Source of the DNA: Escherichia phage 235Ecol030PP
Sequence record: PP355091.1
DNA: 64,000 nucleotides
Reading direction: 5' to 3' (one strand)
Shown here: positions 2,098-27,526 of the stretch, piece after piece
Numbering within the stretch: the stretch's first letter is position 1
Layout of the letters: every line of letters starts with the position of its first letter
Notes under the pieces: generated by a model
What the model was told of the DNA's origin: nothing
The model's input: only the letters and a program-made list of their open reading frames with translations
The model's database searches: none
Position numbers and translations under genes: made by a program

Positions 2098-3113
2098 TGT
2101 GTTGCCTCTACATATAACTGATTTGCATATTGAATAAGTGCTTCACGGTCAGAATCAGTGATGTCTGGAATTGCATTAATGTATTCTTCCATCAATGTCT
2201 GAAGCGATTGAACTTCAACTTCTTCACTGTCATCTGACTCAACAGAGTTATCAATCTTTGACACAACTCGTAATGAATGCACAACTTTCTCTAGTTCAGA
2301 TTCGAACTTCGTTAGATTTTTGTCTACTTCAGTTACTATAACACGTACTGATAGATTTGTAAAATCTTTATAGTCAATTTTTCCTTTAAATGGATAATGA
2401 ATTCTACGATGCCAGGTAGTGTTGTTTGGAATAAATTCCATTCGTTCTGTTTCTGTATCAAACATCCAGAACCCACGAGGGTCATTCTCGTCACCTGCAG
2501 TTAGTGTCCATGGTGTCCCAATATATCTGACGTTAGCAGCCTCAGAGATAGTATGGAAGTGACCAGACCACACTTCTTTATAAGTCTTAAGGAAATCAGG
2601 TTCAAGACCGTGAGATTTCATTCCTTTATAAAAATAAAATCCATTCAGCTCCCAGTGACCAACACAAAAAGAAGCAGATGAAGTTTTGATGTGCTCAAGA
2701 ATTTCACCAGTATTTTCTTCGCACATCCAAGGAATCAAATCAATCAAACATCCGTCAAAATCTACTGTAGTAGGCTTATCATATACTTTAACATTAGGAT
2801 ATTTAGCCAAAAGCTCAGTAGAAGCATTTGGATGCATTACATTTTTGTAGTGGAGATCGTGATTTCCTACAATAGTATGTAATGTGATTCCAGCACCATC
2901 AAGCATTTGAACTATTTCACGGGCAAACTCCATAGTTTTATGTGTGATTGCTTTTCGCACATCAAAAATATCACCATATTGAATCCATACAGTAATTCCA
3001 TTTTTCTTAGAATATTCTATCGCTTGCTTAATTCCATCAATTTGAATACCGCGAATCCACTCATCATCAGCTTTAACGCCTAAATGCCAATCACCTAAAT
3101 TTAAAATTTTCAT
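2094..3113 (-). CDS. 47: Recombination endonuclease subunit gp47 (Mre11/SbcD-like phosphoesterase)
   Basis: 339 aa; phosphoesterase motifs LGDWHLG, GDIFD, GNHD; position next to gene 46 as in T4. Confidence 0.9.
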   Translation of the reverse strand: MKILNLGDWHLGVKADDEWIRGIQIDGIKQAIEYSKKNGITVWIQYGDIFDVRKAITHKTMEFAREIVQMLDGAGITLHTIVGNHDLHYKNVMHPNASTELLAKYPNVKVYDKPTTVDFDGCLIDLIPWMCEENTGEILEHIKTSSASFCVGHWELNGFYFYKGMKSHGLEPDFLKTYKEVWSGHFHTISEAANVRYIGTPWTLTAGDENDPRGFWMFDTETERMEFIPNNTTWHRRIHYPFKGKIDYKDFTNLSVRVIVTEVDKNLTKFESELEKVVHSLRVVSKIDNSVESDDSEEVEVQSLQTLMEEYINAIPDITDSDREALIQYANQLYVEATQ

Positions 3114-3250
3114 ATATCAAGAACCGTCATTGAAATGCAAAATAAAATTATTGAAATAAATCCATCTGGAGTGCTAAAGAACCCAATCCAACATGCTCTA
3201 GCAAATAGATAGAATGCAAGAAAAAGTATCACATATCCAAGAAATATCAT
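3110..3250 (-). CDS. Small hydrophobic peptide (46 aa), translationally coupled to gene 47
   Basis: ATG at 3250; MIFLGYVILFLAFYLFARACWIGFF...; stop TGA overlaps gene 47 ATG (ATGA); below 60-aa cutoff of ORF track. Confidence 0.35.
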   Translation of the reverse strand: MIFLGYVILFLAFYLFARACWIGFFSTPDGFISIILFCISMTVLDI

Positions 3251-3265
3251 TATATCAAACTCCAT

Positions 3266-3290
3266 ATAAAGCTAAAGGGCCGAAGCCCTT
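3266..3290 (-). terminator. GC stem-loop (GGGC-UUCG-GCCC) directly after a-gt stop; putative intrinsic terminator or RNA-stabilising hairpin
   Basis: aagggccgaagccctt at 3275-3290 followed by U-rich tract on minus-strand RNA. Confidence 0.5.
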
Positions 3291-4492
3291 TATTTTGTAA
3301 TAATGTCAAACTGTTCTTTAAAGCAGAAGCTTGAATCTTGATGCTGATACAAAAATTCATATGCTTTTTCTCGCTCACGGTCATAAAGAGCTCGGTCAGA
3401 TGACAGTTCTTTAATACGCTCGAATGTTGATTCCATATCATTTTCATCAAACCAAATGATACCGCTATCATGTGAGGTCAAAGGAGTATTATCAACACGG
3501 AATTTTAAATTTTCGCCAGTAGATTTCCAAAATACCGGAATTGTTCCACATGCACCAAGCTCGAGATGAGTATATTCTAAAGAACGTTGTAAGTATTTCT
3601 GGTTAAGTTTACTCAACTGATATCCAAAGCCAGATTTACTCATTCGTTCAAGCATTTCACTATTAATATAACAATCTAGGATTTGTGCCGGTTGATTCGG
3701 CGTGAGATTCATTTTATCAATCTCACGATTACCATAATATTCATACGGAATACCTTTTTCCTTAATTGCAATAAAAGCAGGGGAACGTTCAAGACCTTCC
3801 ATTACAGTGGATTTACCAGCAGGTTTTAAGAATTTTTCGTGAAAATCAAACATCTGATAAAAACCTTTCCATGTAGTCGTACGACCAATCCAACGGTTGA
3901 TGTTCATGTTAATTTCAGAAACATCTTTCCAGTAGGTTGATCGAACCTTCGCAATATCCATAGGAGGCTGAAAGTTATATACTGCCGGCGCTTCTTCAAT
4001 ATCATCAAACAAAGAAACTGTTTCAGGATACCATTCTTTCATCAGAACTTTATTAAAATCGCCATTATCAGAATGACTAAAAATAACATCAGCTCGACGA
4101 ACAGTTTCTTCTAATCCCAAATTTCGACGCAAAGAAAGAACAGAATGATCATGCTGATAAACTACAACACGAATAGAAGGTTTAATATTATCTAAAAGTT
4201 TTTTATAGTTATTAATCGTGGCTTCTTGAACGGAAGTAGCAGGAACAGAATTAATAATTAGAATATCACAATCATTTACCAGCTTAAGTGCTTTATCGTA
4301 TTCTTTAGCTAAAATAACTGGAATTGAAAATGATTTGTGGTCATGAGAACTTGTACGAGTAAATGATTTATCTTTAGCATAAACCAAAGTTACTTCATGA
4401 CCATTTTTAATAAACCAATCACGTTGCTCAAGAGAAAATTTAGTTACACCGCAACCTTCAAGACCTCGAGCCAGAAAAATGCATACTTTCAT
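3290..4492 (-). CDS. a-gt: DNA alpha-glucosyltransferase (hydroxymethylcytosine glucosylation)
   Basis: 400 aa, same length and position (between 47 and 55) as T4 a-gt; assignment by recalled similarity and synteny. Confidence 0.85.
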   Translation of the reverse strand: MKVCIFLARGLEGCGVTKFSLEQRDWFIKNGHEVTLVYAKDKSFTRTSSHDHKSFSIPVILAKEYDKALKLVNDCDILIINSVPATSVQEATINNYKKLLDNIKPSIRVVVYQHDHSVLSLRRNLGLEETVRRADVIFSHSDNGDFNKVLMKEWYPETVSLFDDIEEAPAVYNFQPPMDIAKVRSTYWKDVSEINMNINRWIGRTTTWKGFYQMFDFHEKFLKPAGKSTVMEGLERSPAFIAIKEKGIPYEYYGNREIDKMNLTPNQPAQILDCYINSEMLERMSKSGFGYQLSKLNQKYLQRSLEYTHLELGACGTIPVFWKSTGENLKFRVDNTPLTSHDSGIIWFDENDMESTFERIKELSSDRALYDREREKAYEFLYQHQDSSFCFKEQFDIITK

Positions 4493-4520
4493 TTAATATC
4501 CTCATTGTTTTGGTTTATTT

Positions 4521-4564
4521 TACCAAAAAAATTTATAAAGCAATATAGGAGCCGAAGCTCCTAT
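4521..4564 (-). terminator. Stem-loop (AUAGGAGC-UUCG-GCUCCUAU) plus U-tract; putative terminator
   Basis: ataggagccgaagctcctat at 4545-4564 with T-rich run downstream on minus strand. Confidence 0.45.
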
Positions 4565-4734
4565 CCACATAATACGTCATACAGAGGCTCGTTAGAACTT
4601 TTAAATTTTATGCGCTTATATGTTATAGTTCCTTCTGCTTTAGCTTTATCGTGAGCCTCTTTAAAGCGTCTCATCATTTCCTCTTTAGAGGAACGAATTT
4701 TATTATAATCTATTTCAGAAGTCTGGGTGTTCAT
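4561..4734 (-). CDS. Small basic protein (57 aa), hypothetical
   Basis: ATG at 4734, MNTQTSEIDYNKIRSSKEEMMRRFKEAHDKAKAEG...; fills gap between flanking genes; not in ORF track (<60 aa). Confidence 0.35.
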   Translation of the reverse strand: MNTQTSEIDYNKIRSSKEEMMRRFKEAHDKAKAEGTITYKRIKFKSSNEPLYDVLCG

Positions 4735-4737
4735 CTT

Positions 4738-4944
4738 TCATAACTGCCACCATTTTTTGACTTGATAAGAATCAACCCACACTTTCATATTAGGGTCTGC
4801 TCTTACAATAGGAGGATTAACTTCTTTAATTGAACTATCATGGTATTCTTTTTCAGAAATTTTCACACAAAGATGACCATTCAAAGATTCAGTAAATCCT
4901 GCATTAATTTTAAGACGCTTGAATTTTACGTGTGTAAGCATCAA
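4738..4944 (-). CDS. Hypothetical protein
   Basis: 68-aa ORF, co-directional. Confidence 0.4.
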   Translation of the reverse strand: MMLTHVKFKRLKINAGFTESLNGHLCVKISEKEYHDSSIKEVNPPIVRADPNMKVWVDSYQVKKWWQL

Positions 4945-5227
4945 TCATATCCTCAATCTGCGATCTAGTAGTCTTCCAAAGAATACTGATGAGTTCATCG
5001 TTATATGGCTGTTTTAGAATATCCCGACTTTTCTTGATAGCATATTCGTATTGAGCAAAATTATTATTTTCAGCTGCAATCTGAGCGTGCTTATAAAGAC
5101 GATTCAGTTCACGTTTGTTTTTAGACAATAACTTATTTGCTTTTCTTTCTGCTTCAAGACGGTTCTTTTCTTCAATAGAAGAAATAAGCTTTTCCACTTC
5201 ATCATTGATTTCGGGTTTATCAGTCAT
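4910..5227 (-). CDS. Hypothetical protein, predicted coiled-coil
   Basis: 105-aa ORF; charged heptad-rich sequence. Confidence 0.45.
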   Translation of the reverse strand: MTDKPEINDEVEKLISSIEEKNRLEAERKANKLLSKNKRELNRLYKHAQIAAENNNFAQYEYAIKKSRDILKQPYNDELISILWKTTRSQIEDMIDAYTRKIQAS

Positions 5228-5228
5228 A

Positions 5229-5447
5229 TTATTTCTCTAATATAAAATAAAAATCATCATCTGTTAAATGATACCGATAGTTTAATTCTACACCATTAGA
5301 TTTAAAAGCGGTATCATACGGATTTTCTGGATCAATATCAATGTCAAGAGCTAAAACTTCCCTGAGATACATTTTAAGTAAATAGGGAATAGCTTCAACT
5401 TCAGGTATTTCTTCCAAGAATCCGGAGAGGTTAATCGTTAGCCTCAT
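5229..5447 (-). CDS. Hypothetical protein
   Basis: 72-aa ORF immediately downstream of gene 55. Confidence 0.45.
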
Positions 5448-5988
5448 ATAAAAAATCCAAACTAGGAGAATCGTCTACAACACTTTTCTTTTCAGCCCCC
5501 GGTGTTCTATAGGTTGATTCTTCGTAATGCGTCATTTTATCGTAGATGTCTTGAATAAAAGTTTCATCTACTAACGCAACCATATCGTCGTCACGGCTGT
5601 CATAGACATTGTGAACGAAGTAACTATATTTCTTTGCAACTTCCTTACGTTCTTTTTTAATACGTTGGACGAATGCATTAAAACAAGCTTGAGTTATATA
5701 CGCATGTGGGTTTTTATATTTCGTTTCATCAAAATTATGAAGCCCCTTAATAGAAGCTTCTATACCATCTGCAATCATTTCTTGTTTCCAAGACTGGGTG
5801 TATCCTGAAAAGTTGAAACGTTTAGATAAGCCTTCTGCAATAAGCATAATGGCTAATCCGATAGTATCATTCTGACGAACTACTTTATTTGGGTCTTTAT
5901 TATTTGCTAATTCTGTTTTCCAATCAATAATAGCTTGTAAAAGCTCTTTATTGTTTACGTAATTATATTTAGGCTTAGTTTCTGACAT
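5431..5988 (-). CDS. 55: Late-transcription sigma factor gp55
   Basis: [33 protein letters not shown]... matches recalled T4 gp55; start taken at second ATG (5988). Confidence 0.9.
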
Positions 5989-6066
5989 TTTCACCTCTTA
6001 GCTCAATTCATAGATCTATTATATCATAACATTTGAAGATCTATCTTAAAGCATAGAGGATATCAG

Positions 6067-6336
6067 TTATCTAAGTAAGCAGTATGCTTGGAATACTTTC
6101 TCCATCATCTTTTTAAATTCATGAATATCTATATAATGACTAGTTAGATCAGCATGATATAAAAAGTCTAAAAACTTTTCATGTGTGCTAACATATTCGC
6201 TTTCATTTAATTCAGAAACATGGCTTTCCCAATATCCAACACCAGTCTTATTTGGGAAAAATGAAATTTTCATATATTGGTCAACATAGAAAATACCAAA
6301 ATTTTCAATAGCAATAGAAATATTAATAAATTTCAT
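6067..6336 (-). CDS. Hypothetical protein (55.x region)
   Basis: 89-aa ORF. Confidence 0.45.
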   Translation of the reverse strand: MKFINISIAIENFGIFYVDQYMKISFFPNKTGVGYWESHVSELNESEYVSTHEKFLDFLYHADLTSHYIDIHEFKKMMEKVFQAYCLLR

Positions 6337-6548
6337 ACATTCATCAACTTAGCCGCTTCAAGAGCTGCATCTAGTGAATCAAATTGGTCAACGTATTCAA
6401 TCAATTCGCCATAATTAGCGTATAACCACCATTGGCTAAATTCATACTCAAGGATGAATCCATTTCCTTCAATTTGAGTTAAACCAATGCCATTTGTATT
6501 TACTTCGTATCCGGCAAGACGCAAATCATTGATAAGAGATTCATTCAT
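6333..6548 (-). CDS. Hypothetical protein (55.x region)
   Basis: 71-aa ORF, 4-nt overlap with neighbour. Confidence 0.45.
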   Translation of the reverse strand: MNESLINDLRLAGYEVNTNGIGLTQIEGNGFILEYEFSQWWLYANYGELIEYVDQFDSLDAALEAAKLMNV

Positions 6549-6550
6549 AA

Positions 6551-6877
6551 TTATGCCTTAGTAATTTTCAGATCAGCAAATTTTTTCTTGCGTTGATTTT
6601 TCATACGACGAATAGTTTTATCGGAAATTTCATGTTTTTGATAAGCTTTAGATTCTACACCAAAAGCTTTAACATCAAATTCTGACAAGATATATTGAAC
6701 CAACAATTCACGGACAGTATTGCGTCCAATCTTCTGATCATTCTGTTTCATCATCTGATGAAGCTCTTTTTCCCATTTATCCAAAATTTGAGGAGTTACA
6801 ATATCGTCTTTTTCTAGCAAAGAAACTACTTTATCATATGCGTAAGAATTAATGACGTTTTTAATTTGAATAGTCAT
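6551..6877 (-). CDS. Hypothetical protein (55.x region)
   Basis: 108-aa ORF. Confidence 0.45.
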   Translation of the reverse strand: MTIQIKNVINSYAYDKVVSLLEKDDIVTPQILDKWEKELHQMMKQNDQKIGRNTVRELLVQYILSEFDVKAFGVESKAYQKHEISDKTIRRMKNQRKKKFADLKITKA

Positions 6878-6910
6878 ATATTATCCTCAATTACGTTAAA
6901 ATTTTATTAT

Positions 6911-6930
6911 CCAAAAAGGGCCGAAGCCCT
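6911..6930 (-). terminator. Stem-loop AGGGC-UUCG-GCCCU plus U-tract; putative terminator
   Basis: aaaaagggccgaagccct at 6913-6930 immediately after stop of ORF 6930-7130. Confidence 0.5.
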
Positions 6931-7130
6931 TAGCTAAACTTTTTGGCACCCTTCCAGCCTTCATACATCATTGCGGCTGATATTAATATTGCTCCTGAGC
7001 AACTTGAATATTTGTGATTCCAAAACCAGTTCAGAAAAACTTCGTCATCAATACCTTGGGCTATCATATTTTCAAAGAACTGACGACGAGCTTCAGCAAT
7101 TCGCTGCGATAATTTAGATTCAGGATTCAT
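6930..7130 (-). CDS. Hypothetical protein
   Basis: 66-aa ORF. Confidence 0.4.
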   Translation of the reverse strand: MNPESKLSQRIAEARRQFFENMIAQGIDDEVFLNWFWNHKYSSCSGAILISAAMMYEGWKGAKKFS

Positions 7131-7349
7131 TTAAATTTCCCACCAATTGCCATTTTCATCAATAAATTCAATCCAGTCATTTACTGACCACTTAGTTGTA
7201 TCGCCTTTTGGAGTAACATTTAAAGTGTATAATCCTTGTTTAAAAAGCATTCGTTTGATATTCATATTTTCCTCAGCTATAACGATAGCACTCGTTTGAT
7301 TTACGCTTAGCAACTCGTTGAGAAGTATTGTAATCAAAATCATCGTCAA
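7131..7349 (-). CDS. Hypothetical protein
   Basis: 72-aa ORF. Confidence 0.4.
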   Translation of the reverse strand: MTMILITILLNELLSVNQTSAIVIAEENMNIKRMLFKQGLYTLNVTPKGDTTKWSVNDWIEFIDENGNWWEI

Positions 7350-9310: not shown

Positions 9311-10139
9311 TTATATATTTCCAATTATAGCCTTCAACACTTTTACGTTCGCCATTTAAACATTTTAAAATATTTCCTTTGCTAGAAATATTAAAATATT
9401 TTGCTGCGTCTGGTATATAATTAAATGTTTTTAAAAGAACACCATCTTTATATGCGCCAAATAAATTAAGAGTATATTTTTCTCGAAGACGTTGATGTTT
9501 CCTTTTCATAACCTCAGGATTTGCATACGCCAACCTCAATGAATTTCTATGTTTTTCTTTTACTTCAGGTTTTTGCATTGCTAACTTAGTTAGCCTGGAA
9601 ATTTTATTTCTAACTTCGTCAGTTTTCATTGCATTTGACAAATTTAATAAAGTTTTATTTCTAACTTCAGGTTTTTGCATTGCTAACTTAGTTAGTTCTC
9701 TATGTCTTTTTCTAAAATCGTCATCCTTCCATATATTTTTCGATAATTTTGACATAGAGCGGTGAAATAATTCCTTTTCACCGGAATACAATTTAAGAAT
9801 TTCATCCAATTCATCTGTATTAAATCTATCGGTATTCGAGTTTATCATTCTATGAAAGGCATAACACATTTTACTATTACTTGTTTTAGCTAAATAGTAA
9901 TGAGCTAACGCGTGGTCATAATATGACAAATTAACAATATTCCATTTATCTGTTTTATATTCAGGAAATATAGATTTGGGAAGCACGTGATGTGCTTCCG
10001 TTTTTCCTTTTATTTTAGGATTATTATAATTTTTTGTTATCAAATCAACATATGACAATAGTAAATCATTATTTTCTTCAAATATTAAAGATAATTTATC
10101 ATTCACAAAATCGCAAGGATAAAATCTATCATAATTCAT
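9300..10139 (-). CDS. mobD: Free-standing HNH-family homing endonuclease (mobD-like) between nrdD and nrdG
   Basis: 279 aa; HNH core EAHHVLPKSIFPEYKTDKWNIVNLSYYDHALAHY; repeated KLAMQKPEV modules; start overlaps nrdD stop (ATGA), stop overlaps nrdG start; gene symbol by position only. Confidence 0.7.
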   Translation of the reverse strand: MNYDRFYPCDFVNDKLSLIFEENNDLLLSYVDLITKNYNNPKIKGKTEAHHVLPKSIFPEYKTDKWNIVNLSYYDHALAHYYLAKTSNSKMCYAFHRMINSNTDRFNTDELDEILKLYSGEKELFHRSMSKLSKNIWKDDDFRKRHRELTKLAMQKPEVRNKTLLNLSNAMKTDEVRNKISRLTKLAMQKPEVKEKHRNSLRLAYANPEVMKRKHQRLREKYTLNLFGAYKDGVLLKTFNYIPDAAKYFNISSKGNILKCLNGERKSVEGYNWKYINEL

Positions 10140-11415
10140 TGGTGTTTAACCCTATGCATGATTTCTTTATTTTTACCGAGATTAAATCCGCGTTCGTTCG
10201 GGTTTCCAAGATATCCGCATGTTCTTCTTATGGTGTTCATCTTTTTAGGATCAGTTTCTCCACAAATAGAACAAACAAATCCGTTTTCAGTAGGAGTCAT
10301 TTCATGGGTACTTCCACATGTAAAACATTTATCTACTGGCATATTAACACCAAAATAATCTAAATGCTGTGCAGCATAATCCCATACGGCCTCAAGACCT
10401 TTTAGGTTATTTTTCATATCAGGAAGTTCAACATAAGAAATGTGACCACCTGTCGCAATGAAATGATATGGGGCTTCGCGAGAAATCTTTTCAAACGGAG
10501 TAATATTTTCTTCTACTGAAACATGGAAACTGTTAGTGTACCAGCCTTTATCAGTAACATCTTTTACACTTCCATATTTTTCTGTATCAAGTTTACAGAA
10601 GCGATAACAAAGGTTTTCAGCAGGAGTCGAATACAAACTAAAAGCAAACCCAGTTCTTTCAGTCCACTGTTTAAGACGAGCATTCATTTTAGTTAAAATT
10701 TCTTGTCCAATATCACGACCGACAAGAATATTCAATTCATGAATACCAATGTATCCTAAAGACACTGAACTTCTGCCATTTTTAAATAACTCAATTATAT
10801 CGTCATCAGGTTTAAGACGAACCCCGAATGCACCTTCTTGGTAAAGAATAGGAGCAACAGTCGCTTTAACTCCTTTTAAGGAACTAATTCTACACATCAA
10901 TGCTTCAAAACATAAATCCATTCGTTCATTGAACAATTCAACAAATTTCTGTTCATTGAACTGTGTTCCAATATAAGAATCTAACGCAATACGAGGAAGA
11001 TTCAATGTTACAACGCCAAGATTATTACGTCCATCAAGAATTTCATTACCAGTCGAATCTTTCCATACGCTCAAGAAACTACGGCAACCCATTGGAGAAA
11101 CAGGAATAGATGAACCGGTGATAGCTTTATTGTTCTTAGCTGAAATAATATCAGGATACATTCTTTTGCTTGCACACTTTAGAGCAAGCTGCTTAATATC
11201 ATAGTTCGGATCGTCTTTGTAAAGATTAACGCCTTCTTCGACGAACATAACAAGCTTAGGGAAAATAGGAGTTATCCCATCACGACCAAGACCTTTAATA
11301 CGATTTTTCAGAATTGCTTTCTGAATCATTCGTTCAGTCCAGTCAGTTCCCGTACCAAATGTAATTGTTACAAAAGGAGTCTGTCCGTTTGAACTGAAAA
11401 GTGTATTTACTTCAT
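10136..11415 (-). CDS. nrdD: Anaerobic ribonucleotide reductase NrdD, exon 2 (3' splice site position approximate)
   Basis: Large ORF with class III RNR C-terminal region including glycyl-radical region; exon boundary inferred from expected ~605-aa length and a G at 11416; not experimentally defined. Confidence 0.75.
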
Positions 11416-12460
11416 CATTATATTCAGCATGAGTCGCAAATTCATGCTCGTTTATATGAAACAACAAAATTTGGATAGTCCATAGATATGCAACGTTCTT
11501 TTATAGTGCTAGGATGAAAATTTAGCGCTTTAGCTGCTTCTATATAAGACGTATACTTAATACCGTCAACAACCACATATTCAGGAACTTTATGAATAGT
11601 AGTCTTAATACTCAAAACAAGAGGATGAGTTTCGACTTCACTTTCAGTGCAATTTAAATATTCCGCTGCTTTTTTAAAACTTCTAAAAGTTTTATTTTTA
11701 AGCTTTATCGATACTTGTTTTTTACTTTTTCGACTATTGATATTATTTTGCACATGTTCCTTAGATCTTCCGTTTTTAGCATAATATTCAGCTACAGAAG
11801 ATTTTATATTGTTTTTATGAGATTCGGATAACACTTTACCCTTATGAGCATCTCTTAATTTTTGAATATGTTCTTCAGTATCCGGATGCTTATAAAACTT
11901 TTTACCGCCTATGGATTTATTTAAACATTTTTTGCTATAAAAATATTTACGTATGACCTCTTCTTCATGTTTTAATGCATCTTTATAACTATCAAATGTT
12001 TTTAAAATTATCCATTTAGTAGGTGTATCAGTTTTTAAGCGTTCATTTATATACTTAGATGACGTTGTGTAAGTTTTCCAGTTTGTGGGCTTGTTTTTAA
12101 TTGTTCTAAATTTTTTATAACCGATATAAATGTCGCCATTAGAAAACTTAACTAAGTATGTAAATGCGTCTTTATCTTTTATTTTAGTACAACGTCTTTT
12201 TATCCATTTCATTGTTTCACCTCGTATTCATAAGATAATCTTATTTATACAAGATGACTGCTGCATGTCGCCATGCAGATTAGACTATATCTTCATCTTT
12301 CGATGCCGGCCGTTTCGAATAGCATTAGCTTCTATTCTACACCGCTACATTCATCACGGTTAGTCGTTAGGCATTTAGTTCAAAAGAACATTTAGCACGG
12401 GATTGTCTACTAGAGAGGTTCCCCGTTTAGACCGGTTTTACATGAGCCTGAATTAAATTA
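11416..12460 (-). mobile_element. Group I self-splicing intron in nrdD (sunY-type) carrying I-TevII ORF; boundaries approximate (about +/-10 nt)
   Basis: nrdD reading frame interrupted by about 1 kb; contains GIY-YIG endonuclease ORF; putative P1 pairing (exon ...AUGAGU with intron GCUCAU) near 12461. Confidence 0.7.
11442..12212 (-). CDS. I-TevII: Intron-encoded homing endonuclease I-TevII
   Basis: 256 aa; MKWIKRRCTKIKDKDAFTYLVKFSNGDIYIGYKK... (GIY-YIG-type N-terminus); lies inside nrdD intron as in T4. Confidence 0.85.
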   Translation of the reverse strand: MKWIKRRCTKIKDKDAFTYLVKFSNGDIYIGYKKFRTIKNKPTNWKTYTTSSKYINERLKTDTPTKWIILKTFDSYKDALKHEEEVIRKYFYSKKCLNKSIGGKKFYKHPDTEEHIQKLRDAHKGKVLSESHKNNIKSSVAEYYAKNGRSKEHVQNNINSRKSKKQVSIKLKNKTFRSFKKAAEYLNCTESEVETHPLVLSIKTTIHKVPEYVVVDGIKYTSYIEAAKALNFHPSTIKERCISMDYPNFVVSYKRA

Positions 12461-12998
12461 ACTCATACGCCTGAAACGCGTCATAGACATCTTTTTCTGT
12501 TTTAGATTGAGCATAATTCAACGCATCAGCGATTTGCCATTTTTCTGCATCCTCAATATGTTTTGCATAGGTGCGTTTAACATAAGGAGAAAGTACTTTA
12601 TCTACATTCGCAAAAGTCGTTCCGCCATATTGATGGGAAGCAACCTGTGCAGTAATTTGTGCCATAATTGCAGTAGCAACGCCAATTGATTTAGGAGTTT
12701 CAATCTGTGCATTACCGAGCTTAAATCCGTTCTCAAGCATTCCTTTTAAATCTACTAAACAGCAATTAGTAAATGGAAGAGCAGGGGAATAATCAATATC
12801 GTGCACGTGAATAATTCCGCTTTCATGCGCTTTCATAATAAAAGACGGGACCATATTTTTGGCAATGTGTTTAGACACAATACCAGCCATAAGGTCCCGT
12901 TGAGTTGGAAAAACACGAGAATCTTTATTAGCATTCTCGTTTAAAAGGTCTTTATTAGTTTTATGAATCAATCCTTCAATTTCTTTTTCAATTGTCAT
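12461..12998 (-). CDS. nrdD: Anaerobic ribonucleotide reductase NrdD, exon 1 (5' splice site approximate)
   Basis: MTIEKEIEGLIHKTNKDLLNENANKDSRVFPTQRDLMAGIVSKH...; 4-nt overlap with gene 49 stop. Confidence 0.8.
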
Positions 12999-13468: not shown

Positions 13469-13507
13469 AATAAAACCCTTACCTTAAATAGATAAGGGTA
13501 TTTATTA

Positions 13508-13556
13508 TTTTCAAGTATTGTAAAACATTCGATGCAATCGTTTATACTGTCGAATC
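13508..13556. repeat. Direct repeat copy 1 (49 bp; partner at 13721-13769)
   Basis: ttttcaagtattgtaaaacattcgatgcaatcgtttatactgtcgaatc versus copy 2 with about 4 mismatches; covers the last 14 codons and stop of two different ORFs. Confidence 0.8.
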
Positions 13557-13687
13557 ATCTTTTTAGTAGGACGAGAATAGGTTCCTACGCAAGTGGTCAT
13601 ATGAGGGTCCGTAGAATGTCCTTTAATAAAAAGTTTCCAAACCTTACCGCCATTTAACTTTTCAGTATAAACCAATTCGGTTTTCAT
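13511..13687 (-). CDS. Small ORF (58 aa) sharing its C-terminal 14 residues with the next gene via a direct repeat
   Basis: MKTELVYTEKLNGGKVWKLFIKGHSTDPHMTTCVGTYSRPTKKMIRQYKRLHRMFYNT; AAGG 8 nt upstream of ATG; not in ORF track. Confidence 0.35.
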   Translation of the reverse strand: MKTELVYTEKLNGGKVWKLFIKGHSTDPHMTTCVGTYSRPTKKMIRQYKRLHRMFYNT

Positions 13688-13720
13688 TAAAATGCCTTGT
13701 CAGAAAAAGAATTTTGAGTT

Positions 13721-13769
13721 TTTTCAAGTATTGTAAAACATTTGATGCAATCGCTTATATTGCCGAATC
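13721..13769. repeat. Direct repeat copy 2 (49 bp; partner at 13508-13556)
   Basis: ttttcaagtattgtaaaacatttgatgcaatcgcttatattgccgaatc. Confidence 0.8.
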
Positions 13770-14227
13770 TTTTGGTCAGAAAAAGAAATTTGATTTTCAA
13801 GCCATTCAATGTATTCTGCGGCAGCTTGCATCAGGTTACCTTCATAGCCATCGTTATTTTCTTGTGCAGCTAATTTAGCTAATGCGTATGAAATACGTTC
13901 ACCTTGAAAATCGGCTTTAGGCTTCTGAACAACTTGATTAGTTTGCTCTACAACTTCTTCAATTTCGCCATTTTCTACTGATTCAGTATTCCACAAACAC
14001 CAATACGTAATTGGCTTATCGTAGATGTTAATAATCTTTCCATCAGAAAGTTCAATTTCAATAATTCCAGTATCAGGTTCTATATCATCTTCACATTCTT
14101 TTGCAAGTTCACGAACTTTAAAGACAGTACCTGCACTAAGTTCCGGCCAGTAATTACATAGCCCTGTATCAGCACGATTAATTCTAAACCACTTATCTAC
14201 TGTAATCATGTCCCATCTCCATATCAA
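13724..14227 (-). CDS. Hypothetical protein (occupies the T4 pin position; identity not established)
   Basis: 167-aa ORF; C-terminus IRQYKRLHQMFYNT duplicated in the small ORF downstream. Confidence 0.5.
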   Translation of the reverse strand: MIWRWDMITVDKWFRINRADTGLCNYWPELSAGTVFKVRELAKECEDDIEPDTGIIEIELSDGKIINIYDKPITYWCLWNTESVENGEIEEVVEQTNQVVQKPKADFQGERISYALAKLAAQENNDGYEGNLMQAAAEYIEWLENQISFSDQKIRQYKRLHQMFYNT

Positions 14228-14331
14228 TTAAGTCATTTATCATTGGTTCATTATACACCGTTTCTTCATCAGTGTAAACCGGTTCTTCCGGCTCTGGCTC
14301 TACAGTTTCCCATCTAGCCGCCCACCAAGGT

Positions 14332-14541
14332 TTAACCCCGAAGCTTATTAAGTTCTTCATAATCAATCCAGGATTCTAATCCTGATGGCAAATCAGATTC
14401 AATTTCCCAAAGAAGCTCTTCAATTTTCTGAAGACGATCTAGTTCTTCGGCTGGAATAGTAACCATTGATGGAGTTCTTGATACACTAATATCGTAAATC
14501 ATATTTACCCCAGTTTGACCATACAATCGCCGTATTTCCAC
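14332..14541 (-). CDS. Hypothetical protein
   Basis: 69-aa ORF. Confidence 0.4.
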   Translation of the reverse strand: MEIRRLYGQTGVNMIYDISVSRTPSMVTIPAEELDRLQKIEELLWEIESDLPSGLESWIDYEELNKLRG

Positions 14542-14720: not shown

Positions 14721-14980
14721 TTAAAGTATTCCCGCAATTGGTCAAATCCACCAATATGACTTCCATCAGGAGCAAATACCTGAGGCATCGTCAATCCGAT
14801 TTGAGTATCACGACCTAGTTTAGTCAGAAGCTCAGCAATTTTCTCATCATCAAAAACACCTTTTTCCGGCATAATGTTGATAAATTCAAACGGCTGTTTC
14901 TTCACAGTCAAAAGACGTTTTGCATTATCACAATACACACATTTATGAATGTTGCTATCATAACCATATACTTTAAACAT
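14717..14980 (-). CDS. nrdC: Thioredoxin/glutaredoxin NrdC
   Basis: 87 aa; MFKVYGYDSNIHKCVYCDNAKRLL (CVYC active site); matches recalled T4 NrdC. Confidence 0.9.
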   Translation of the reverse strand: MFKVYGYDSNIHKCVYCDNAKRLLTVKKQPFEFINIMPEKGVFDDEKIAELLTKLGRDTQIGLTMPQVFAPDGSHIGGFDQLREYFK

Positions 14981-14981
14981 A

Positions 14982-15365
14982 TTATTCCTTAATTCCTAGT
15001 ACTTGTTTAAAAGTCTCGTCGTAATCAAGACTTTGGCCCGTTTGTTCTTTATGTTTGTATATAATATCACTTACTTCTGATAGCATATTTTTATATGAAC
15101 GAGTTAAAGCAGATTTAAGCACGCTGTATCTATCAGGAAATTTACCATGTTCATTATAATAAGCTATTGCTAATTCACGGACTGCCTTTTCAGCAGTCTC
15201 CATATATTCTTTACGCTTGGTCATTTTCTTCTCGGTCAAATCGGTGTTTACAATGGCGACATTTATAACGAAGATTACTAGTCTGCCAATGGACCAATTG
15301 CACCTGTTCAGTTCCACATTCAGGGCAATTAGGAACGTTTTTAGAAGCACGTTCGCGACGTTCAA
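14982..15365 (-). CDS. Hypothetical protein; start probably internal (MTKRKEY near 15224)
   Basis: ORF overlaps upstream zinc-ribbon ORF by about 150 nt in its 5' part. Confidence 0.4.
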
Positions 15366-22464: not shown

Positions 22465-22946
22465 TCAGCCTTATATTCAATAACAGGACATACTTTAGCT
22501 TTACGAGCTTTTAAAAATTCAACGATAATCGATTTCTTGGGTTGAATAGGCTCAAGTCCATTTTTGATTCGTTCTTCGTTTTGTACAATGAGCTCAATTT
22601 CTTTATTGAGCTTTCGGTCGTTATATTTGTCTAACAACCAGGAAGGACCAATTACCGCCCCAACAGCAATAAGAACCATAACCGATAATGCTAAAATGCC
22701 TATACCAATTGAAGCCGGAACTAATGTCCATAGACTACTAAAGACAAAGAATTTAATTAAAATTTCTTGGCCAATTATTGCGGCACCTGCTAAAGTTGCA
22801 AATCCAACAATTGAAACAGCTAATACCGGGAGAAACGTTTTCCAAAAATAAGCACATAACGTTTTTGGACGATTCCATGTGCTATTAAATGCCGAGTAAA
22901 TTTTATAGTGCCAAGAGTTTTCATTAATAATCATAATTATAATCAT
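22461..22946 (-). CDS. Membrane protein, hypothetical
   Basis: 161 aa; multiple hydrophobic segments. Confidence 0.5.
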   Translation of the reverse strand: MIIIMIINENSWHYKIYSAFNSTWNRPKTLCAYFWKTFLPVLAVSIVGFATLAGAAIIGQEILIKFFVFSSLWTLVPASIGIGILALSVMVLIAVGAVIGPSWLLDKYNDRKLNKEIELIVQNEERIKNGLEPIQPKKSIIVEFLKARKAKVCPVIEYKAE

Positions 22947-23464
22947 CCTTTCATTGAAGGTGTAACAGTTGTTAAATACTTAATCATAGCTTCAGCTTCT
23001 GATTTTGATAATGAAATTTCTCCATTGTTTTGACGAATAGAAATAAAATCCGGATGACGGTCACCACCAGCTTTTAAAACACACATATAAGTATCAGTTT
23101 CGCCTTCAATATTTGAAATGATTGAAGCAGTTCCACATGAATGCGGTTTTTGATAAATCAATACAGCTTTTCTTCCACCGTTTGACTGTTCATAGGCTTT
23201 TAATACATCAAGCAAATCAGTTCTTTTATCAATAGCTAAGATGTTATTTTCATCTTCAATATTAAATCCTTCGGATACTTCATAAAGAGTTACCCATAAA
23301 TCACCGATGTCAATAACAGCATTTACTTTTCCACGGCTTTCAAGAGTATGACAAATTTTCTTGATTTCATCATAACTCATTTTAATAATATCATCTCCTT
23401 GAATAAGGAAGATGTCATTTTTAAATTCAACGCGAATTAAACCACTTCCACTTGAAATAAACAT
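22943..23464 (-). CDS. Hypothetical protein, paralog of adjacent gene
   Basis: 173 aa; shares GFNIE...IRQ...A.A.K.YL..V.P.M with ORF 23471-24034. Confidence 0.5.
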   Translation of the reverse strand: MFISSGSGLIRVEFKNDIFLIQGDDIIKMSYDEIKKICHTLESRGKVNAVIDIGDLWVTLYEVSEGFNIEDENNILAIDKRTDLLDVLKAYEQSNGGRKAVLIYQKPHSCGTASIISNIEGETDTYMCVLKAGGDRHPDFISIRQNNGEISLSKSEAEAMIKYLTTVTPSMKG

Positions 23465-23470
23465 ATTTCC

Positions 23471-24034
23471 TCACTTTGAAATCATAGTTGGAATGACAGA
23501 ATCAAGATAAGTCTTTAGTGCAATAGCTTCGTCTTTGGTAAATGTGACAATATGTGCTCGAGAATCATCAATTTGACGAATAGTTAAGACATCTCCTTCT
23601 TCATAGCATTTTGATACATTTAAAACAGTTTCATCATTCTGATCGCACTGATCGCAAGCGTTAGTAATAATAGCATTGCAATTTTTAAGCCATTTTAAAC
23701 TGTGTTTTCTTTCATTAGAATAATAAAAATATTTAATGTAAGTTATAAAATTATCCCAATTATTAATTGATAAGCATATTGACTCGCTTTCAATGTTAAA
23801 TCCTGGGCATAAAGAATAGAAATGAATTTTATGCTCATCATTAATGCTTACAATTTTATCAGTGTAAGGTTTTTCAATTTGGGTTAAATGAATAATTTCG
23901 CTAGGCGTAAAATATAGCATATCGTCTTCTTGCGTCAAACGATACATATTATTTACTTTTTCTATAGCCAATTCACCAAAAAGTGAACTAACTTCTAATA
24001 CTAATCGTTTCATATTAATCCTTTTTATTGGCAC
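23471..24034 (-). CDS. Hypothetical protein, paralog of adjacent gene
   Basis: 187 aa; see paralog 22943-23464. Confidence 0.5.
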   Translation of the reverse strand: MPIKRINMKRLVLEVSSLFGELAIEKVNNMYRLTQEDDMLYFTPSEIIHLTQIEKPYTDKIVSINDEHKIHFYSLCPGFNIESESICLSINNWDNFITYIKYFYYSNERKHSLKWLKNCNAIITNACDQCDQNDETVLNVSKCYEEGDVLTIRQIDDSRAHIVTFTKDEAIALKTYLDSVIPTMISK

Positions 24035-24293
24035 GAATTTGTTCTAAAATTTTAGAATATTCCTTTGTATCAGATTTACGTACAATTGATACACTATAAG
24101 GCATACTATCGGTGTCTTTTATAAAGCGTTCCAAATGACACTCTAACAAAATTTCTGGATTATAAATCGTGTACATCAAATTACCTGTTGCTCCACGATA
24201 TTGGCAGATTTCTACTGATTGAACACCATTCCATAATTTTGTTAAAACTAAATCACCTACTTCTAATTTAGGAAAGCCCATGTTATTCACCAA
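24015..24293 (-). CDS. Hypothetical protein
   Basis: 92-aa ORF. Confidence 0.45.
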   Translation of the reverse strand: MVNNMGFPKLEVGDLVLTKLWNGVQSVEICQYRGATGNLMYTIYNPEILLECHLERFIKDTDSMPYSVSIVRKSDTKEYSKILEQIRANKKD

Positions 24294-24468
24294 TTAAAGT
24301 TTCAATATAAGAATCAAGATTTACTTTAGCTTCTTCCATAAGAGTTTTGTATTTAATCTTGTTAGCATGTCCGGAGAAAGCTGATTCATCAATAATTGTT
24401 GATGTATGAACAGCTTTACTATACGTCTCAATTAATTCTCTTAATTTAAAAGCCTGCTCACTTGTCAT
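24283..24468 (-). CDS. Small helical protein, hypothetical
   Basis: 61-aa ORF. Confidence 0.4.
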   Translation of the reverse strand: MTSEQAFKLRELIETYSKAVHTSTIIDESAFSGHANKIKYKTLMEEAKVNLDSYIETLIGE

Positions 24469-24600
24469 TACATACTCCTTTGAATAATATCAATAATGTT
24501 GTTCACCAGATTATAAGTAAACATTGGGTAATTATATTGAATCATCACATACACAACAAACAAAACTTTCATTCTCTTCTCCTTGGCAGTTGACAAGATT

Positions 24601-24630
24601 ACTATACCATAACCTTGCCAACTTGTAAAC
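24601..24630 (-). promoter_or_regulatory. T4-type early promoter
   Basis: -35 GTTTACA (24624-24630), 17-nt spacer, -10 TATAGT (24601-24606). Confidence 0.55.
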
Positions 24631-24795
24631 CGTTAAATGTTGTTTTCAATAAAATTTTGAAGCTTTGTGTGAGCATCAACCATGATTTTCATTTCTTCTT
24701 TTGCGAAAGCTGTACCTCTTTCCCGAGCAGAATACTCATAGTCAGAAACTGCATTAGCATATTCTTCAATTAGCTTCATTAAAAACATCTGCTTT

Positions 24796-24990
24796 TCAGT
24801 TTTCATTATTCCACCTAATCATTTCAAGATATTGAACTAACTTAGCTTTAGATTTATCCAAATCCTTTTTAGCTGCTTCTATACCGTCGTATGAATATCC
24901 TTCACAATGCTCAACTGCTAATTGATATGAATCTATTTCAATATCACGTGCTAATTTAATGATTTTTTCAAACTGTTCGCGTGTTAGCAT
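24796..24990 (-). CDS. Small helical protein, hypothetical
   Basis: 64-aa ORF. Confidence 0.4.
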   Translation of the reverse strand: MLTREQFEKIIKLARDIEIDSYQLAVEHCEGYSYDGIEAAKKDLDKSKAKLVQYLEMIRWNNEN

Positions 24991-24992
24991 AC

Positions 24993-25175
24993 TTAAACTC
25001 TCGTATTATGATCGATAATTTCATCAAGAAACATATCTAACGCTTCTACAGCATTATCAACTTTAGCTTCAAGTTCTTCAATACCTGATAAGGCAAAGTT
25101 AATGCGTTCCTCATCTGCTTTACGAATTAAAGATACCAATTCCTTAATTTTATCCGCTTGTTCGATACTAATCAT
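24993..25175 (-). CDS. Small helical protein, hypothetical (start at internal Met)
   Basis: Track ORF 24993-25211; start trimmed to avoid overlap. Confidence 0.4.
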   Translation of the reverse strand: MISIEQADKIKELVSLIRKADEERINFALSGIEELEAKVDNAVEALDMFLDEIIDHNTRV

Positions 25176-25360
25176 TATTCCACCACATATGAAAGAGAGA
25201 ATATTGCACACGCCATGTGAGTTGCAACTTCATCACACATATTATAACGTTTCTTAAGAAGTTCTACAAGTTCTTCACTAGTAACTTCATCCATGTCGAC
25301 GAAAAAATCACCATTAATGATGACGTAGATATTTCCTTCTTGATTGAGTGCTTCAATTTT
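25175..25360 (-). CDS. Small protein, hypothetical (start at [10 protein letters not shown])
   Basis: Track ORF 25175-25408 includes promoter; GAGGAGAACATC precedes ATG. Confidence 0.4.
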
Positions 25361-25391
25361 CATGATGTTCTCCTCTTTATCCGATAGTTGT

Positions 25392-25421
25392 ATAGTACCA
25401 CAGCTCAAACGGAAAGTAAAC
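25392..25421 (-). promoter_or_regulatory. T4-type early promoter
   Basis: -35 GTTTACT (25415-25421), 17-nt spacer, -10 TACTAT (25392-25397). Confidence 0.55.
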
Positions 25422-25430
25422 CGGTAAAAT

Positions 25431-25453
25431 GAAAAAAGTCTCCCGAAGGAGAC
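25431..25453 (-). terminator. Intrinsic terminator (GUCUCC-UUCG-GGAGAC plus U6)
   Basis: gtctcccgaaggagac at 25438-25453 with A-run 25432-25437 on plus strand. Confidence 0.65.
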
Positions 25454-25458
25454 TAATG

Positions 25459-25845
25459 TTATTCGAGGGAAAGAAGATACTTACTCTGGTAAAACATTCC
25501 AGTAATATCATCTATCGTGCTTTGGATGGCTGGAGGCATTTCTTTATAAATGCTGTTAGATTGGTCTAGTATGCGATCAATCATTTTAATTGTGTCGGTA
25601 GGAAGTTTACTGGCATCTGGAATTGAAGGTGTGTATTTTCTACCAGAATACCCCAAATATTGCTCACCAAATTTATCAATCAAATCTGGCAACTCGGAGA
25701 AAATAAAATCGTATGCTTTGTGTCTAGCATAACTTTTAGTTTCAAAATGTGCAGAATGAAAATAAGCTTGTGCAGCCATTAATAAACCTAAGTATTCATC
25801 TGCCTTTGAAGGTTTTCCACTTTGTGAAAAGTCACTGAATTTCAT
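25459..25845 (-). CDS. Hypothetical protein
   Basis: 128-aa ORF, 4-nt overlap with rI stop. Confidence 0.5.
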
Positions 25846-26135
25846 TCAGTCTCCAATTTAATGTTCATAATTCTAGCGTATGATTGTGCCATCTCCGCGC
25901 CTCGCTCTATACATTCAAAATCAGAAGAGCACGGGTCATTTTTATAGGTCGTTCTCATAAAACTATAGAATTGTTCAGACGATTCTACGCTTTTATTTTC
26001 AAAAAGCATATAAACATGCCTAATACCAGATTCCATAAATTTATCAAAATGAGGATCAACATTCGCTTCAATCGATGGAGATAAAACAAATGACAATCCT
26101 AGCATGGCAAATAGTGCCGTTGCTTTTAAGGCCAT
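25842..26135 (-). CDS. rI: Lysis inhibition regulator RI (periplasmic, signal-anchor)
   Basis: 97 aa; MALKATALFAMLGLSFVLSPSIEANVDPHF... matches recalled T4 RI; adjacent to tk. Confidence 0.85.
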   Translation of the reverse strand: MALKATALFAMLGLSFVLSPSIEANVDPHFDKFMESGIRHVYMLFENKSVESSEQFYSFMRTTYKNDPCSSDFECIERGAEMAQSYARIMNIKLETE

Positions 26136-26147
26136 AAAGGCCTCCTA

Positions 26148-26360
26148 TCATTTTTGTCCTGTATTTACTTTATGCCGATGCACGGCCTTAACTTTATCAA
26201 GGTATTTTTCAAAATTTCGCAATCTAGTATAGTCTGCCGGAGATTGGTTGAGTGATACTTCTCGACGCAAAGCTGAAATGATATTTCCAACTTCCCTACG
26301 AATTTCATCTAATTGAAGCACAGTAAGATTGCGAAGTTGCTTTTCAGTTAATTGTAGCAT
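26148..26360 (-). CDS. Hypothetical protein
   Basis: 70-aa ORF between rI and tk. Confidence 0.45.
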
Positions 26361-26402
26361 ATATACCCCTTTAGTTAGATAAACCTATTTATAACTTTTG
26401 CA

Positions 26403-26984
26403 CTAACCGAGCTTTTTAGTTAATTCATTCCAATGTTTTCTACACAAAGAAACATAAATTTCATCACCAATACAGATTTGATTACCTTCTTTAACTGGTG
26501 TTCCATCTTCCATTAATCGAGCTGTCATAATCGCTTTTTTACCGCAATGACAAACTGCCTTTAGTTCAATAAGTTTATCTGCAATCGCTAAAAGTTCTTT
26601 AGAACCTTCAAATAATTTTCCAGCGAAATCAGTCCTTAATCCATAAGCCATAACAGGAACATTATATGTATCAACAATTCGACTTAATTGATGCACTTGT
26701 TCAGTTTTTAAAAATTGGGCTTCATCTACAAATACACAATGAATATCTTTTTGTGCTTCAGCCCATTTATAGAACTCGAAAATATCCATATCATCTGTAA
26801 TAATATTCGCTTCCTGCTTAATTCCAATGCGAGAAACGACTTCACAGACAGAATCGCGAGTATCAATAGCAGGCTTAAGAACTAATACACTCATTCCACG
26901 TTCTTTATAATTATGTGCAGCAGTCAAAAGAGAAGCAGATTTTCCAGCATTCATTGCTGCATAAGTAAAAATTAAACTCGCCAT
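26403..26984 (-). CDS. tk: Thymidine kinase
   Basis: 193 aa; P-loop NAGKSASLL and C-terminal zinc motif CHCGKKA...CRKH typical of TK. Confidence 0.9.
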   Translation of the reverse strand: MASLIFTYAAMNAGKSASLLTAAHNYKERGMSVLVLKPAIDTRDSVCEVVSRIGIKQEANIITDDMDIFEFYKWAEAQKDIHCVFVDEAQFLKTEQVHQLSRIVDTYNVPVMAYGLRTDFAGKLFEGSKELLAIADKLIELKAVCHCGKKAIMTARLMEDGTPVKEGNQICIGDEIYVSLCRKHWNELTKKLG

Positions 26985-26985
26985 T

Positions 26986-27174
26986 TTAGTCCTTAGTTAA
27001 ATTTTCTAAATATGTTTCTAAATCATTTTCAGCTTTATCGATAGATTTTACTAATTCGTAATATGTTTCGGCATCTCCATATTCAGAAGATATTTCAAAA
27101 GACAAATCCTTTTCTAAACTAATAATTTCACCAACTAAAAATAATATTTCGTTCTTTTGTTCGCGAGTAATCAT
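26986..27174 (-). CDS. Small acidic helical protein, hypothetical
   Basis: 62 aa; similar to neighbour 27171-27356. Confidence 0.4.
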   Translation of the reverse strand: MITREQKNEILFLVGEIISLEKDLSFEISSEYGDAETYYELVKSIDKAENDLETYLENLTKD

Positions 27175-27356
27175 AAGGAATTTATATAATCAATGAGTTC
27201 TTGTTCTTTATTATCAAATTCTTTGGAAAGTTCTTCATATTCATTTGCGCTAAAAGGACCGCATTCATTACAAACTTTTTCCAATTCACTATTTTTATCC
27301 ATAATTTCGTGGATAAGAGAAAAGAGTTTGTCTTTTTGTTCTTTGCTTAGGCTCAT
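27171..27356 (-). CDS. Small acidic helical protein, hypothetical
   Basis: 61 aa; shares EQK..L..L..EI pattern with neighbour. Confidence 0.4.
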   Translation of the reverse strand: MSLSKEQKDKLFSLIHEIMDKNSELEKVCNECGPFSANEYEELSKEFDNKEQELIDYINSL

Positions 27357-27361
27357 ATATT

Positions 27362-27526
27362 AATTTCCAGAAGTTTTAAAATAATTCGCTTTTGCTTAAA
27401 TATTTCCACAGTTAAATGATCAGTATCTTTTTGACCAATTCCAATGGCAAAACCTTTATTAACAGCGAGTTCAATTAAATTATCAAGTTCACGTAACACT
27501 TCATATTGTAACTCAGAACTATTCAT
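27362..27526 (-). CDS. Small ORF (54 aa), hypothetical
   Basis: MNSSELQYEVLRELDNLIELAVNKGFAIGIGQ...; ATG overlaps stop of upstream gene (ATGA); not in track. Confidence 0.3.

Follow-up and report, generated by a model that had tools for sequence, protein, structure and literature searches.

Conservation of four short open reading frames in the leftward accessory region of the T4-like Escherichia phage 235Ecol030PP

In phage T4, gene 47.1 (NP_813808, 141 nucleotides (nt), annotated as 'hypothetical predicted membrane protein') codes for 46 amino acids (aa) between a-gt and gene 47, and a-gt.2 (NP_049675) is located downstream of a-gt.3. Between gene 49 and pin, the gene for the Lon protease inhibitor PinA (Pfam Inhibitor_I24), other T4-like phages encode small proteins of the RB69ORF087c / JS98 ORF076c / VR7ORF082c type, and T2, RB14 and RB32 carry an open reading frame (ORF) of the RB32ORF110c type. 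Homologues of these four genes were analyzed in a stretch of 64,000 nt from Escherichia phage 235Ecol030PP (PP355091.1), which as a whole is called the window here. The latter two are referred to as the DUF7279 gene and the 110c-type gene. All four are already listed as hypothetical proteins in public annotations and in family libraries, two of them (47.1 and a-gt.2) in T4.

The window has a GC content of about 34%, and over about the first 46 kb its genes are located on the minus strand. It represents a Tequatrovirus (T4-like) genome, as a 13-kb stretch is 95-97% identical to hundreds of Tequatrovirus genomes and the gene order (46.2, 47, a-gt, 55, nrdG, nrdD, 49, pin, nrdC ... tk, tk.1-tk.4, vs) is that of T4. 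The four ORFs all lie within the leftward-transcribed minus-strand block, which is early/middle in T4. A sequence-only reading of the window had proposed them as genuine genes filling gaps, and all four do exist in this orientation between larger genes. Three of the four coordinate pairs were confirmed as given; for the fourth ORF the start at 27526 was right, whereas no stop codon is present at the proposed end (27362, 54 aa) and the frame runs on to 27353 (57 aa). We regard all four as genuine protein-coding genes of the early/middle leftward accessory region that are kept by purifying selection, with a probability of about 0.9. Their reading frames, whose lack of conservation in relatives had been named as the counter-evidence to look for, were found to be conserved by PHROG and Pfam profiles, tblastn, synteny and in-frame purifying selection.

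Full-length matches to PHROG profiles were obtained for all four proteins with E-values of 6e-31 to 4e-37. These are phrog_6693 for 47.1 (E 6.4e-31, residues 1-46 on profile positions 2-47 of 47), phrog_2140 for a-gt.2 (E 4e-37), phrog_3272 for the DUF7279 protein (E 3.4e-34) and phrog_3452 for the 110c-type protein (E 2.8e-33, residues 1-57 on profile positions 1-58 of 58). In addition, Pfam matches above the gathering score were found for a-gt.2 (DUF5486, PF17588; 138.2 bits at a cut-off of 27, residues 5-57 on profile positions 1-53 of 53) and for the DUF7279 protein (PF23945; 62.7 bits at a cut-off of 24.5, residues 7-56). Since scans of IMG/VR yielded just 6 loci for the DUF7279 gene and 4 for the 110c-type gene, GenBank phage records were used instead. 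Among 50,697 such records, tblastn matched 47.1 in 601, a-gt.2 in 831, the DUF7279 gene in 357 and the 110c-type gene in 438, nearly all of them at full length, and the synteny of the four genes is kept across genera.

For the analysis of the coding frame, orthologous ORFs from 28 loci of Tequatrovirus, Gaprivervirus, Dhakavirus, Mosigvirus and Kanagawavirus were subjected to protein-guided codon alignment and Nei-Gojobori counts of nonsynonymous and synonymous differences. The median pairwise ratio of nonsynonymous to synonymous substitution rates (dN/dS) was 0.14 for 47.1, 0.23 for a-gt.2, 0.20 for the DUF7279 gene and 0.18 for the 110c-type gene, which is within or near the range of the neighbouring control genes gene 49 (0.06), pin (0.16) and tk.2 (0.22). 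The pooled ratio of nonsynonymous to synonymous proportions (pN/pS), from pairwise counts that derive from 7-13 distinct sequences per gene and are not phylogenetically independent, was 0.21, 0.34, 0.30 and 0.39 in the same order, whereas the shifted frames of the same alignments gave 0.89-2.25 (0.99 and 2.25 for 47.1, 1.2-1.3 for a-gt.2, 0.9-1.7 for the DUF7279 gene and 0.95-1.04 for the 110c-type gene). No stop codon was found in the proposed frame in any of the relatives in this test, compared to 13-79 off frame. The excess of variable columns at the third codon position reached p=0.001 for 47.1, 0.005 for the DUF7279 gene, 0.07 for a-gt.2 and 0.09 for the 110c-type gene. The direction of the result is the same for all four ORFs and shows purifying selection in the proposed frame only. 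The positions of the genes and of the associated features are given in Table 1.

Table 1. Features of the window discussed in the text (all on the minus strand; positions refer to the whole window).
Feature	Position	Strand	Description	Basis
47.1 homologue of T4	3110..3250	-	46 aa	phrog_6693, T4 annotation, 601 phage records, pN/pS
Middle-promoter-like motif (T4 type)	3249..3272	-	MotA-box-like GCTTTA 3272-3267, 12 nt spacer, TATAAT 3254-3249, as read from the sequence	
CUUCGG-loop hairpin	3273..3292	-	after the a-gt stop, directly 5' of 47.1	terminator-like scan
Middle-promoter-like motif 5' of a-gt	4510-4545	-	GCTTTA, 12-13 nt spacer, TAAAAT	read from the sequence
CUUCGG-loop hairpin	4545..4564	-	contains the a-gt.2 stop codon	terminator-like scan
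a-gt.2 homologue (DUF5486)	4561..4734	-	57 aa, basic; last gene before the a-gt promoter region	
Hairpin 5' of gene 49	13475..13499	-	between the stop of the DUF7279 gene and the gene 49 ATG, enclosing the gene 49 Shine-Dalgarno sequence	hairpin scan
Direct repeat, copy 2	13508..13556	-	3' end of the DUF7279 gene (codons for ..IRQYKRLHRMFYNT and stop)	repeat alignment
DUF7279 gene (RB69ORF087c / JS98 ORF076c / VR7ORF082c type)	13511..13687	-	58 aa, pI 10.1, between pin and gene 49	
Spacer between pin and the DUF7279 gene	13688..13728	-	second copy of the pin segment CTTGAAAA..TTCTTTTTCTGAC and remnant ..SFSDKAF with stop	alignments
Direct repeat, copy 1	13721..13769	-	pin 3' end (codons for ..IRQYKRLHQMFYNT and stop), tail derived from the DUF7279 gene and fused to Pin	repeat alignment
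Small ORF	14193-14360	-	position of T4 49.1, directly upstream of pin	phrog_2382
Small ORF	14332-14502	-	family labelled 'antitoxin from a toxin-antitoxin system'	phrog_3402
Small ORF	24468-24572	-		phrog_3515
Small ORF	24633-24806	-		phrog_2758
110c-type gene (RB32ORF110c type)	27353..27526	-	57 aa	phrog_3452, 438 records, pN/pS

The 47.1 protein has the same length as T4 gp47.1 and is identical to it in 45 of 46 residues; residue 17 is an A in the window and a T in T4 and most relatives. Its description as a hydrophobic peptide of 46 aa coupled to gene 47 by ATGA proved correct: the grand average of hydropathy (GRAVY) is 1.79, and the TGA stop codon and the gene 47 ATG overlap (ATGA at 3110-3113). 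T4 shares both this overlap of 4 nt and the location between a-gt and gene 47. An overlap between the stop codon of 47.1 and the next start codon, belonging either to gene 47 or to an inserted homing endonuclease gene, is also found in T4, JS10, CIP9 and PaulHMueller. Two hydrophobic segments are separated by STPDG, and the peptide is predicted from its hydropathy to be most likely an inner-membrane hairpin. A GGAG (3263-3260), located 9 nt 5' of the ATG, was identified as its Shine-Dalgarno (SD) sequence. The ORF listing gives a longer form of 51 aa starting at an additional in-frame ATG at 3265, which was rejected, as this ATG was found in the window alone and relatives including T4 have ACG at this position. 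The JS10 record annotates 47.1. Among the sampled 47.1 matches, gene 47 is the only gene listed at the match in about two thirds of the records from GenBank, and 47.1 is thus often unannotated.

An intact, unannotated 47.1 homologue (..FLGVIVLILAFYLFTRACWIGFFSTPDGLLSVVLFLISISALDL and stop) was also observed in Escherichia phage A7_1 (Vequintavirinae; about positions 395-535 of the extracted locus), where it lies in an unrelated context and partly overlaps an annotated coding sequence in another frame. This copy suggests horizontal transfer of the mini-gene across subfamilies.

In the window and in Tequatrovirus, the TATAAT -10 element of the middle-promoter-like motif overlaps the ATG of 47.1. 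In JS10, SP18 and CIP9 the GCTTTA/-10 motif is shifted upstream by about 25 nt and precedes a GAGGAG SD sequence; the genera with this arrangement upstream of the 47.1 ATG are Dhakavirus, Gaprivervirus and Kanagawavirus. Transcripts from the putative middle promoter, should it be active in Tequatrovirus, would begin inside 47.1 and lack the start codon, which would leave transcripts reading through from a-gt as the only templates for 47.1 translation. According to the mechanism we propose, 47.1 would be translated from transcripts reading through the a-gt hairpin and would be translationally coupled to gene 47. A scan of three regions for sigma-70 promoters gave results no better than those for shuffled sequences.

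The a-gt.2 protein (pI 9.2) is 96% identical to its T4 counterpart over residues 5-57. As in T4, the gene is located downstream of a-gt.3, and the CUUCGG hairpin at its end is shared as well; in the window its ATG is 3 nt past the a-gt.3 stop codon. An annotated a-gt.2 is present at this position in T4, VR7, JS10, JS09 and SP18. The a-gt.3-like ORF of the window (4738-4941) differs from T4 a-gt.3 in a single residue (H34 compared to R34). Downstream, T4 carries the homing endonuclease gene mobB between a-gt.2 and a-gt, whereas the window has no mobB. The N-termini differ as well, with MNTQ in the window and MVATVKDEHP in T4, as one nt is inserted close to the 5' end of the gene. This extra base (window 4700-4760, minus strand) is shared by the window, EC121 and G28 and is lacking in T4 and F1. 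With it, the frame of the T4 start codon meets a stop, and the body of the protein is reached in another frame from a second ATG at 4734. The conserved body thus stays translatable through the indel, which argues for selection on the protein. We propose that a-gt.2 is a basic, probably soluble protein that ends the unit from gene 55 to a-gt.2. A partial match to phrog_17354 carries the label 'head maturation protease'. This label goes back to Citrobacter and Klebsiella phages, in which short matches are named 'prohead core protein protease', and was rejected, as a-gt.2 has no protease features.

The DUF7279 protein agrees with RB69ORF087c, JS98 ORF076c and VR7ORF082c in size, in the location of its gene between pin and gene 49 and in the C-terminus RPTKKMIRQ(Y/F)KRLHR.FY, with an overall identity of 54-81%. 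This position is shared by Tequatrovirus, Gaprivervirus, Dhakavirus and Mosigvirus, and VR7, JS10 and JS09 annotate the DUF7279 orthologue, like that of a-gt.2, at the same site as in the window. At least 80% of the gene is covered in 352 of the 357 records, and every extracted orthologue is an intact ORF. AlphaFold2 predicted three strands and a C-terminal helix, with a mean confidence (pLDDT) of 82 for the best model and 52-63 for the other four. The hairpin between its stop codon and gene 49 is nearly invariant in five aligned relatives, with one substitution in KNP5. In contrast to the orthologues named above, the DUF7279 gene of the window follows a pin allele in which a copy of the DUF7279 tail is already present.

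The junction between the two genes was compared over window positions 13480-13830 (minus strand), positions 14860-15000 of the T4 locus and positions 600-960 of the KNP5 locus, and three arrangements were distinguished. In the KNP5 type, Pin has 148 aa and ends in ..SFSDRAF, and its stop codon overlaps the ATG of the DUF7279 gene. In the type of T4, EC121 and G28, a deletion joins pin at about codon 147 to the final 14-15 codons of the DUF7279 gene, which is otherwise gone; Pin has 161 aa and ends in ..MIQQYKRLHQMFYNT. In the type of the window and F1, what remains of the KNP5-type pin end follows the tailed pin end of the T4 type, the join being at the CTTGAAAA microhomology, and the full DUF7279 gene comes next. 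The remnant in the spacer (..SFSDKAF) represents the original pin 3' end as found in KNP5-type phages. As a consequence, two sets of repeats flank the DUF7279 gene, namely the 49-nt direct repeats and a duplicated pin segment of about 27 nt. Judging from this arrangement, recombination at the 49-nt or the 27-nt repeat pair would lead back to the T4 type or the KNP5 type.

T4-type PinA ends in 14-15 residues that show 81-93% identity to the DUF7279 C-terminus. The Pfam PinA model covers Pin residues 4-141 and ends before this shared tail, which is lacking in Pin of the RB69 and KNP5 types. It is well supported that T4-type PinA carries the C-terminal helix of DUF7279 via a deletion fusing both genes. 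The C-terminus of the studied T4 PinA is therefore not part of the conserved PinA domain. The DUF7279 protein itself differs from PinA in having no PinA domain: a search for Inhibitor_I24 in it gave no match, DUF7279 being the only domain found. In Mosigviruses a second DUF7279 paralogue is located upstream of pin, so that pin is flanked by two, and one Mosigvirus record (flagged unverified) has pin and the DUF7279 gene as a single ORF. The junction shows that the DUF7279 gene and pin are linked in their evolution. A joint action of the DUF7279 protein and PinA on the host Lon protease, suggested by adjacency and fusion, is a rather doubtful idea. The repeat structure, together with the PinA tail as a relic of the DUF7279 gene, is the only observation beyond existing annotation and is mildly new. 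It provides a clean example of how accessory genes of T4-like phages are gained, lost and fused by recombination between short repeats.

The 110c-type protein is 100% identical to the ORF of T2 and RB14, and its gene has the same neighbours and overlaps as the RB32ORF110c-type genes. ATGA overlaps are found at both ends, upstream with an ORF of the Phage_zn_bind family (27523-27735) and downstream with tk.2 (27171-27356), and AAGAAGGT is located 7 nt 5' of the ATG. The gene is annotated with conserved 4-nt overlaps in EC121, G28, phiD1 and JoYop, of which G28 and phiD1 carry an allele with 57% identity. It is not present in T4, VR7, JS10 and JS09. The AlphaFold2 model is a helical hairpin (pLDDT 81), which is a generic fold. 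The protein would thus be a helical hairpin that is probably translated by coupling in the run tk.4, tk.3, 111c, 110c, tk.2.

Within this run, the upstream ORF (27523-27735, minus strand) belongs to PF23895 (RB32ORF111c type) and is absent from T4, so that it forms, together with the 110c-type gene, an insertion relative to T4. The next ORF (27726-27938, minus strand) is a homologue of tk.3 (DUF7202). In Escherichia phage UFV-AREG1 a chimeric protein of 57 aa was observed, in which residues 1-35 are 110c-like and the C-terminus matches the end of tk.3/DUF7202. The chimera indicates recombination within the small-gene run.

The T4 RefSeq record annotates 47.1 and a-gt.2 and has no ORF at the positions of the DUF7279 gene and the 110c-type gene. 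The gap between pin and gene 49 is 41 nt in T4, and tk.2 and tk.3 overlap directly. A tblastn search with both proteins at the T4 locus found nothing except a 16-residue match of the DUF7279 tail to the end of Pin. Both genes are therefore dispensable.

With respect to expression, the supplement of a dual-omics study of T4 lists a-gt.2 with early RNA and a protein detected by liquid chromatography-mass spectrometry and assigned to the late class (PMC9697503). No function for any of the four genes was found in the libraries and papers searched. A literature search found 'a-gt.2' in no paper's main text, and '47.1' matched mostly numbers. The main texts of the CRISPRi-ART and HIDEN-SEQ papers on T4 essentiality do not mention the four genes. 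Sequence searches of the PDB and NCBIfam profiles gave no credible match for the four proteins, and no NCBIfam match at all. A Foldseek comparison of the models of the DUF7279 and 110c-type proteins with the PDB was not informative (best match E 0.27, TM score below 0.5), and that with BFVD gave one significant match, an uncharacterized homologue in Salmonella phage S16. The sole PADLOC match, a marginal partial Cmr1 for a-gt.2 (E 0.0011), was regarded as chance. Because of their location in the genome and the lack of two of them in T4, the four proteins are probably accessory host-interaction or takeover factors.

Mononucleotide shuffles of the gene strand of the 46-kb block contained, over three frames, about 21 ATG-initiated ORFs with a length of 46 aa or more and about 8 with 57 aa or more. 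A single ORF of such length is therefore unremarkable by chance, and the case for the four genes rests on conservation and not on length. One or more of them might then be a chance ORF in AT-rich intergenic DNA, the conservation being due to overlapping promoters, hairpins or the ribosome binding site (RBS) of the next gene; the 5' end of 47.1 does overlap a promoter-like motif, and the 3' ends of a-gt.2 and the DUF7279 gene adjoin conserved hairpins. Regulatory conservation, however, would not yield an excess of variable third positions, a low in-frame pN/pS or a single stop-free frame, nor full-length matches to curated protein families, and for a-gt.2 the protein has been detected in T4. 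Given the coding-frame tests, this explanation is already largely refuted and extremely improbable. It is also unlikely that 47.1 is kept mainly as a translated leader, whose translation up to the ATGA overlap brings ribosomes to gene 47 while the peptide itself is functionless. Such a role would fit the overlap and the weak anti-SD match of gene 47 (-2.5 kcal/mol), as well as phage L14, in which a compensated +1/-1 frameshift pair (401-535 of the extracted locus) scrambles 19 residues of 47.1 but leaves the frame open and the overlap intact. The peptide is nevertheless under strong constraint: in addition to its low pN/pS, RACWIGFFSTPDGFISIILFCI is invariant between genera at a proportion of synonymous differences (pS) of 0.56-0.68. 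Furthermore, an intact 47.1 precedes a homing endonuclease gene and not gene 47 in G28 and PaulHMueller, and an intact copy is also found in the unrelated context of the Vequintavirinae phage, which speaks against its being a coupling leader only. For the DUF7279 gene, its absence from T4, EC121 and G28, the survival of only its tail in T4 pin, the direct repeats of 49 nt and about 27 nt that could delete it and a weak SD sequence would all agree with a decaying remnant of recombination between pin alleles that is not functional in Tequatrovirus. With intact orthologues at nearly complete coverage, the same position in four genera, a paralogue in Mosigvirus and a pN/pS that is low in frame only, without in-frame stops in 13 distinct sequences, we consider this very unlikely.

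Several observations nonetheless weigh against four genuine genes under selection. The sequence-only reading had credited each ATG with a plausible RBS or translational coupling, which holds for 47.1 (GGAG and ATGA) and for the 110c-type gene (AAGAAGGT and ATGA at both ends); the SD sequences of a-gt.2 and the DUF7279 gene are weak (AAGG only in the latter). Besides L14 47.1, the a-gt.2 of F1 (3064-3241 of the extracted locus) is frameshifted, near its 3' end, and annotated with 46 aa; both frameshifts may be real variants or sequencing errors. Transcripts starting at the putative middle promoter would miss the 47.1 start codon, T4 has lost two of the genes, and the pooled counts share phylogenetic history, as stated above. 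In T4, 47.1 RNA is early and the protein is given as 'NA', not being detected in the proteome (PMC9697503); a hydrophobic peptide of 46 aa is, however, hard to detect by tryptic mass spectrometry. For the DUF7279 and 110c-type genes the literature search yielded no expression data in any phage, nor any for the phage of the window itself.

As a discovery the four genes carry little weight, being already catalogued, and the result is of use mainly as a quality check: an ORF cut-off of 60 aa misses at least eight real genes in the 46-kb block. The list of the sequence-only reading was incomplete in this respect, since an analysis of the gaps revealed at least four more minus-strand ORFs below 60 aa with full-length PHROG matches (Table 1). 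Small ORFs at 39619-40212 were dismissed as spurious, as they overlap a cluster of eight tRNA genes (Arg, Met, Thr, Ser, Pro, Gly, Leu, Gln) at 38899-40256 on the minus strand. Finally, nrdD appears split into two parts (10136-11467 and 12453-12998, minus strand) with an ORF of 256 aa (11442-12212) between them. An intron and a homing endonuclease are present in F1 and T4 in the region that corresponds to 10136-12998 of the window. The window departs from F1 at this site, since only 94% of the query is covered by the alignment.

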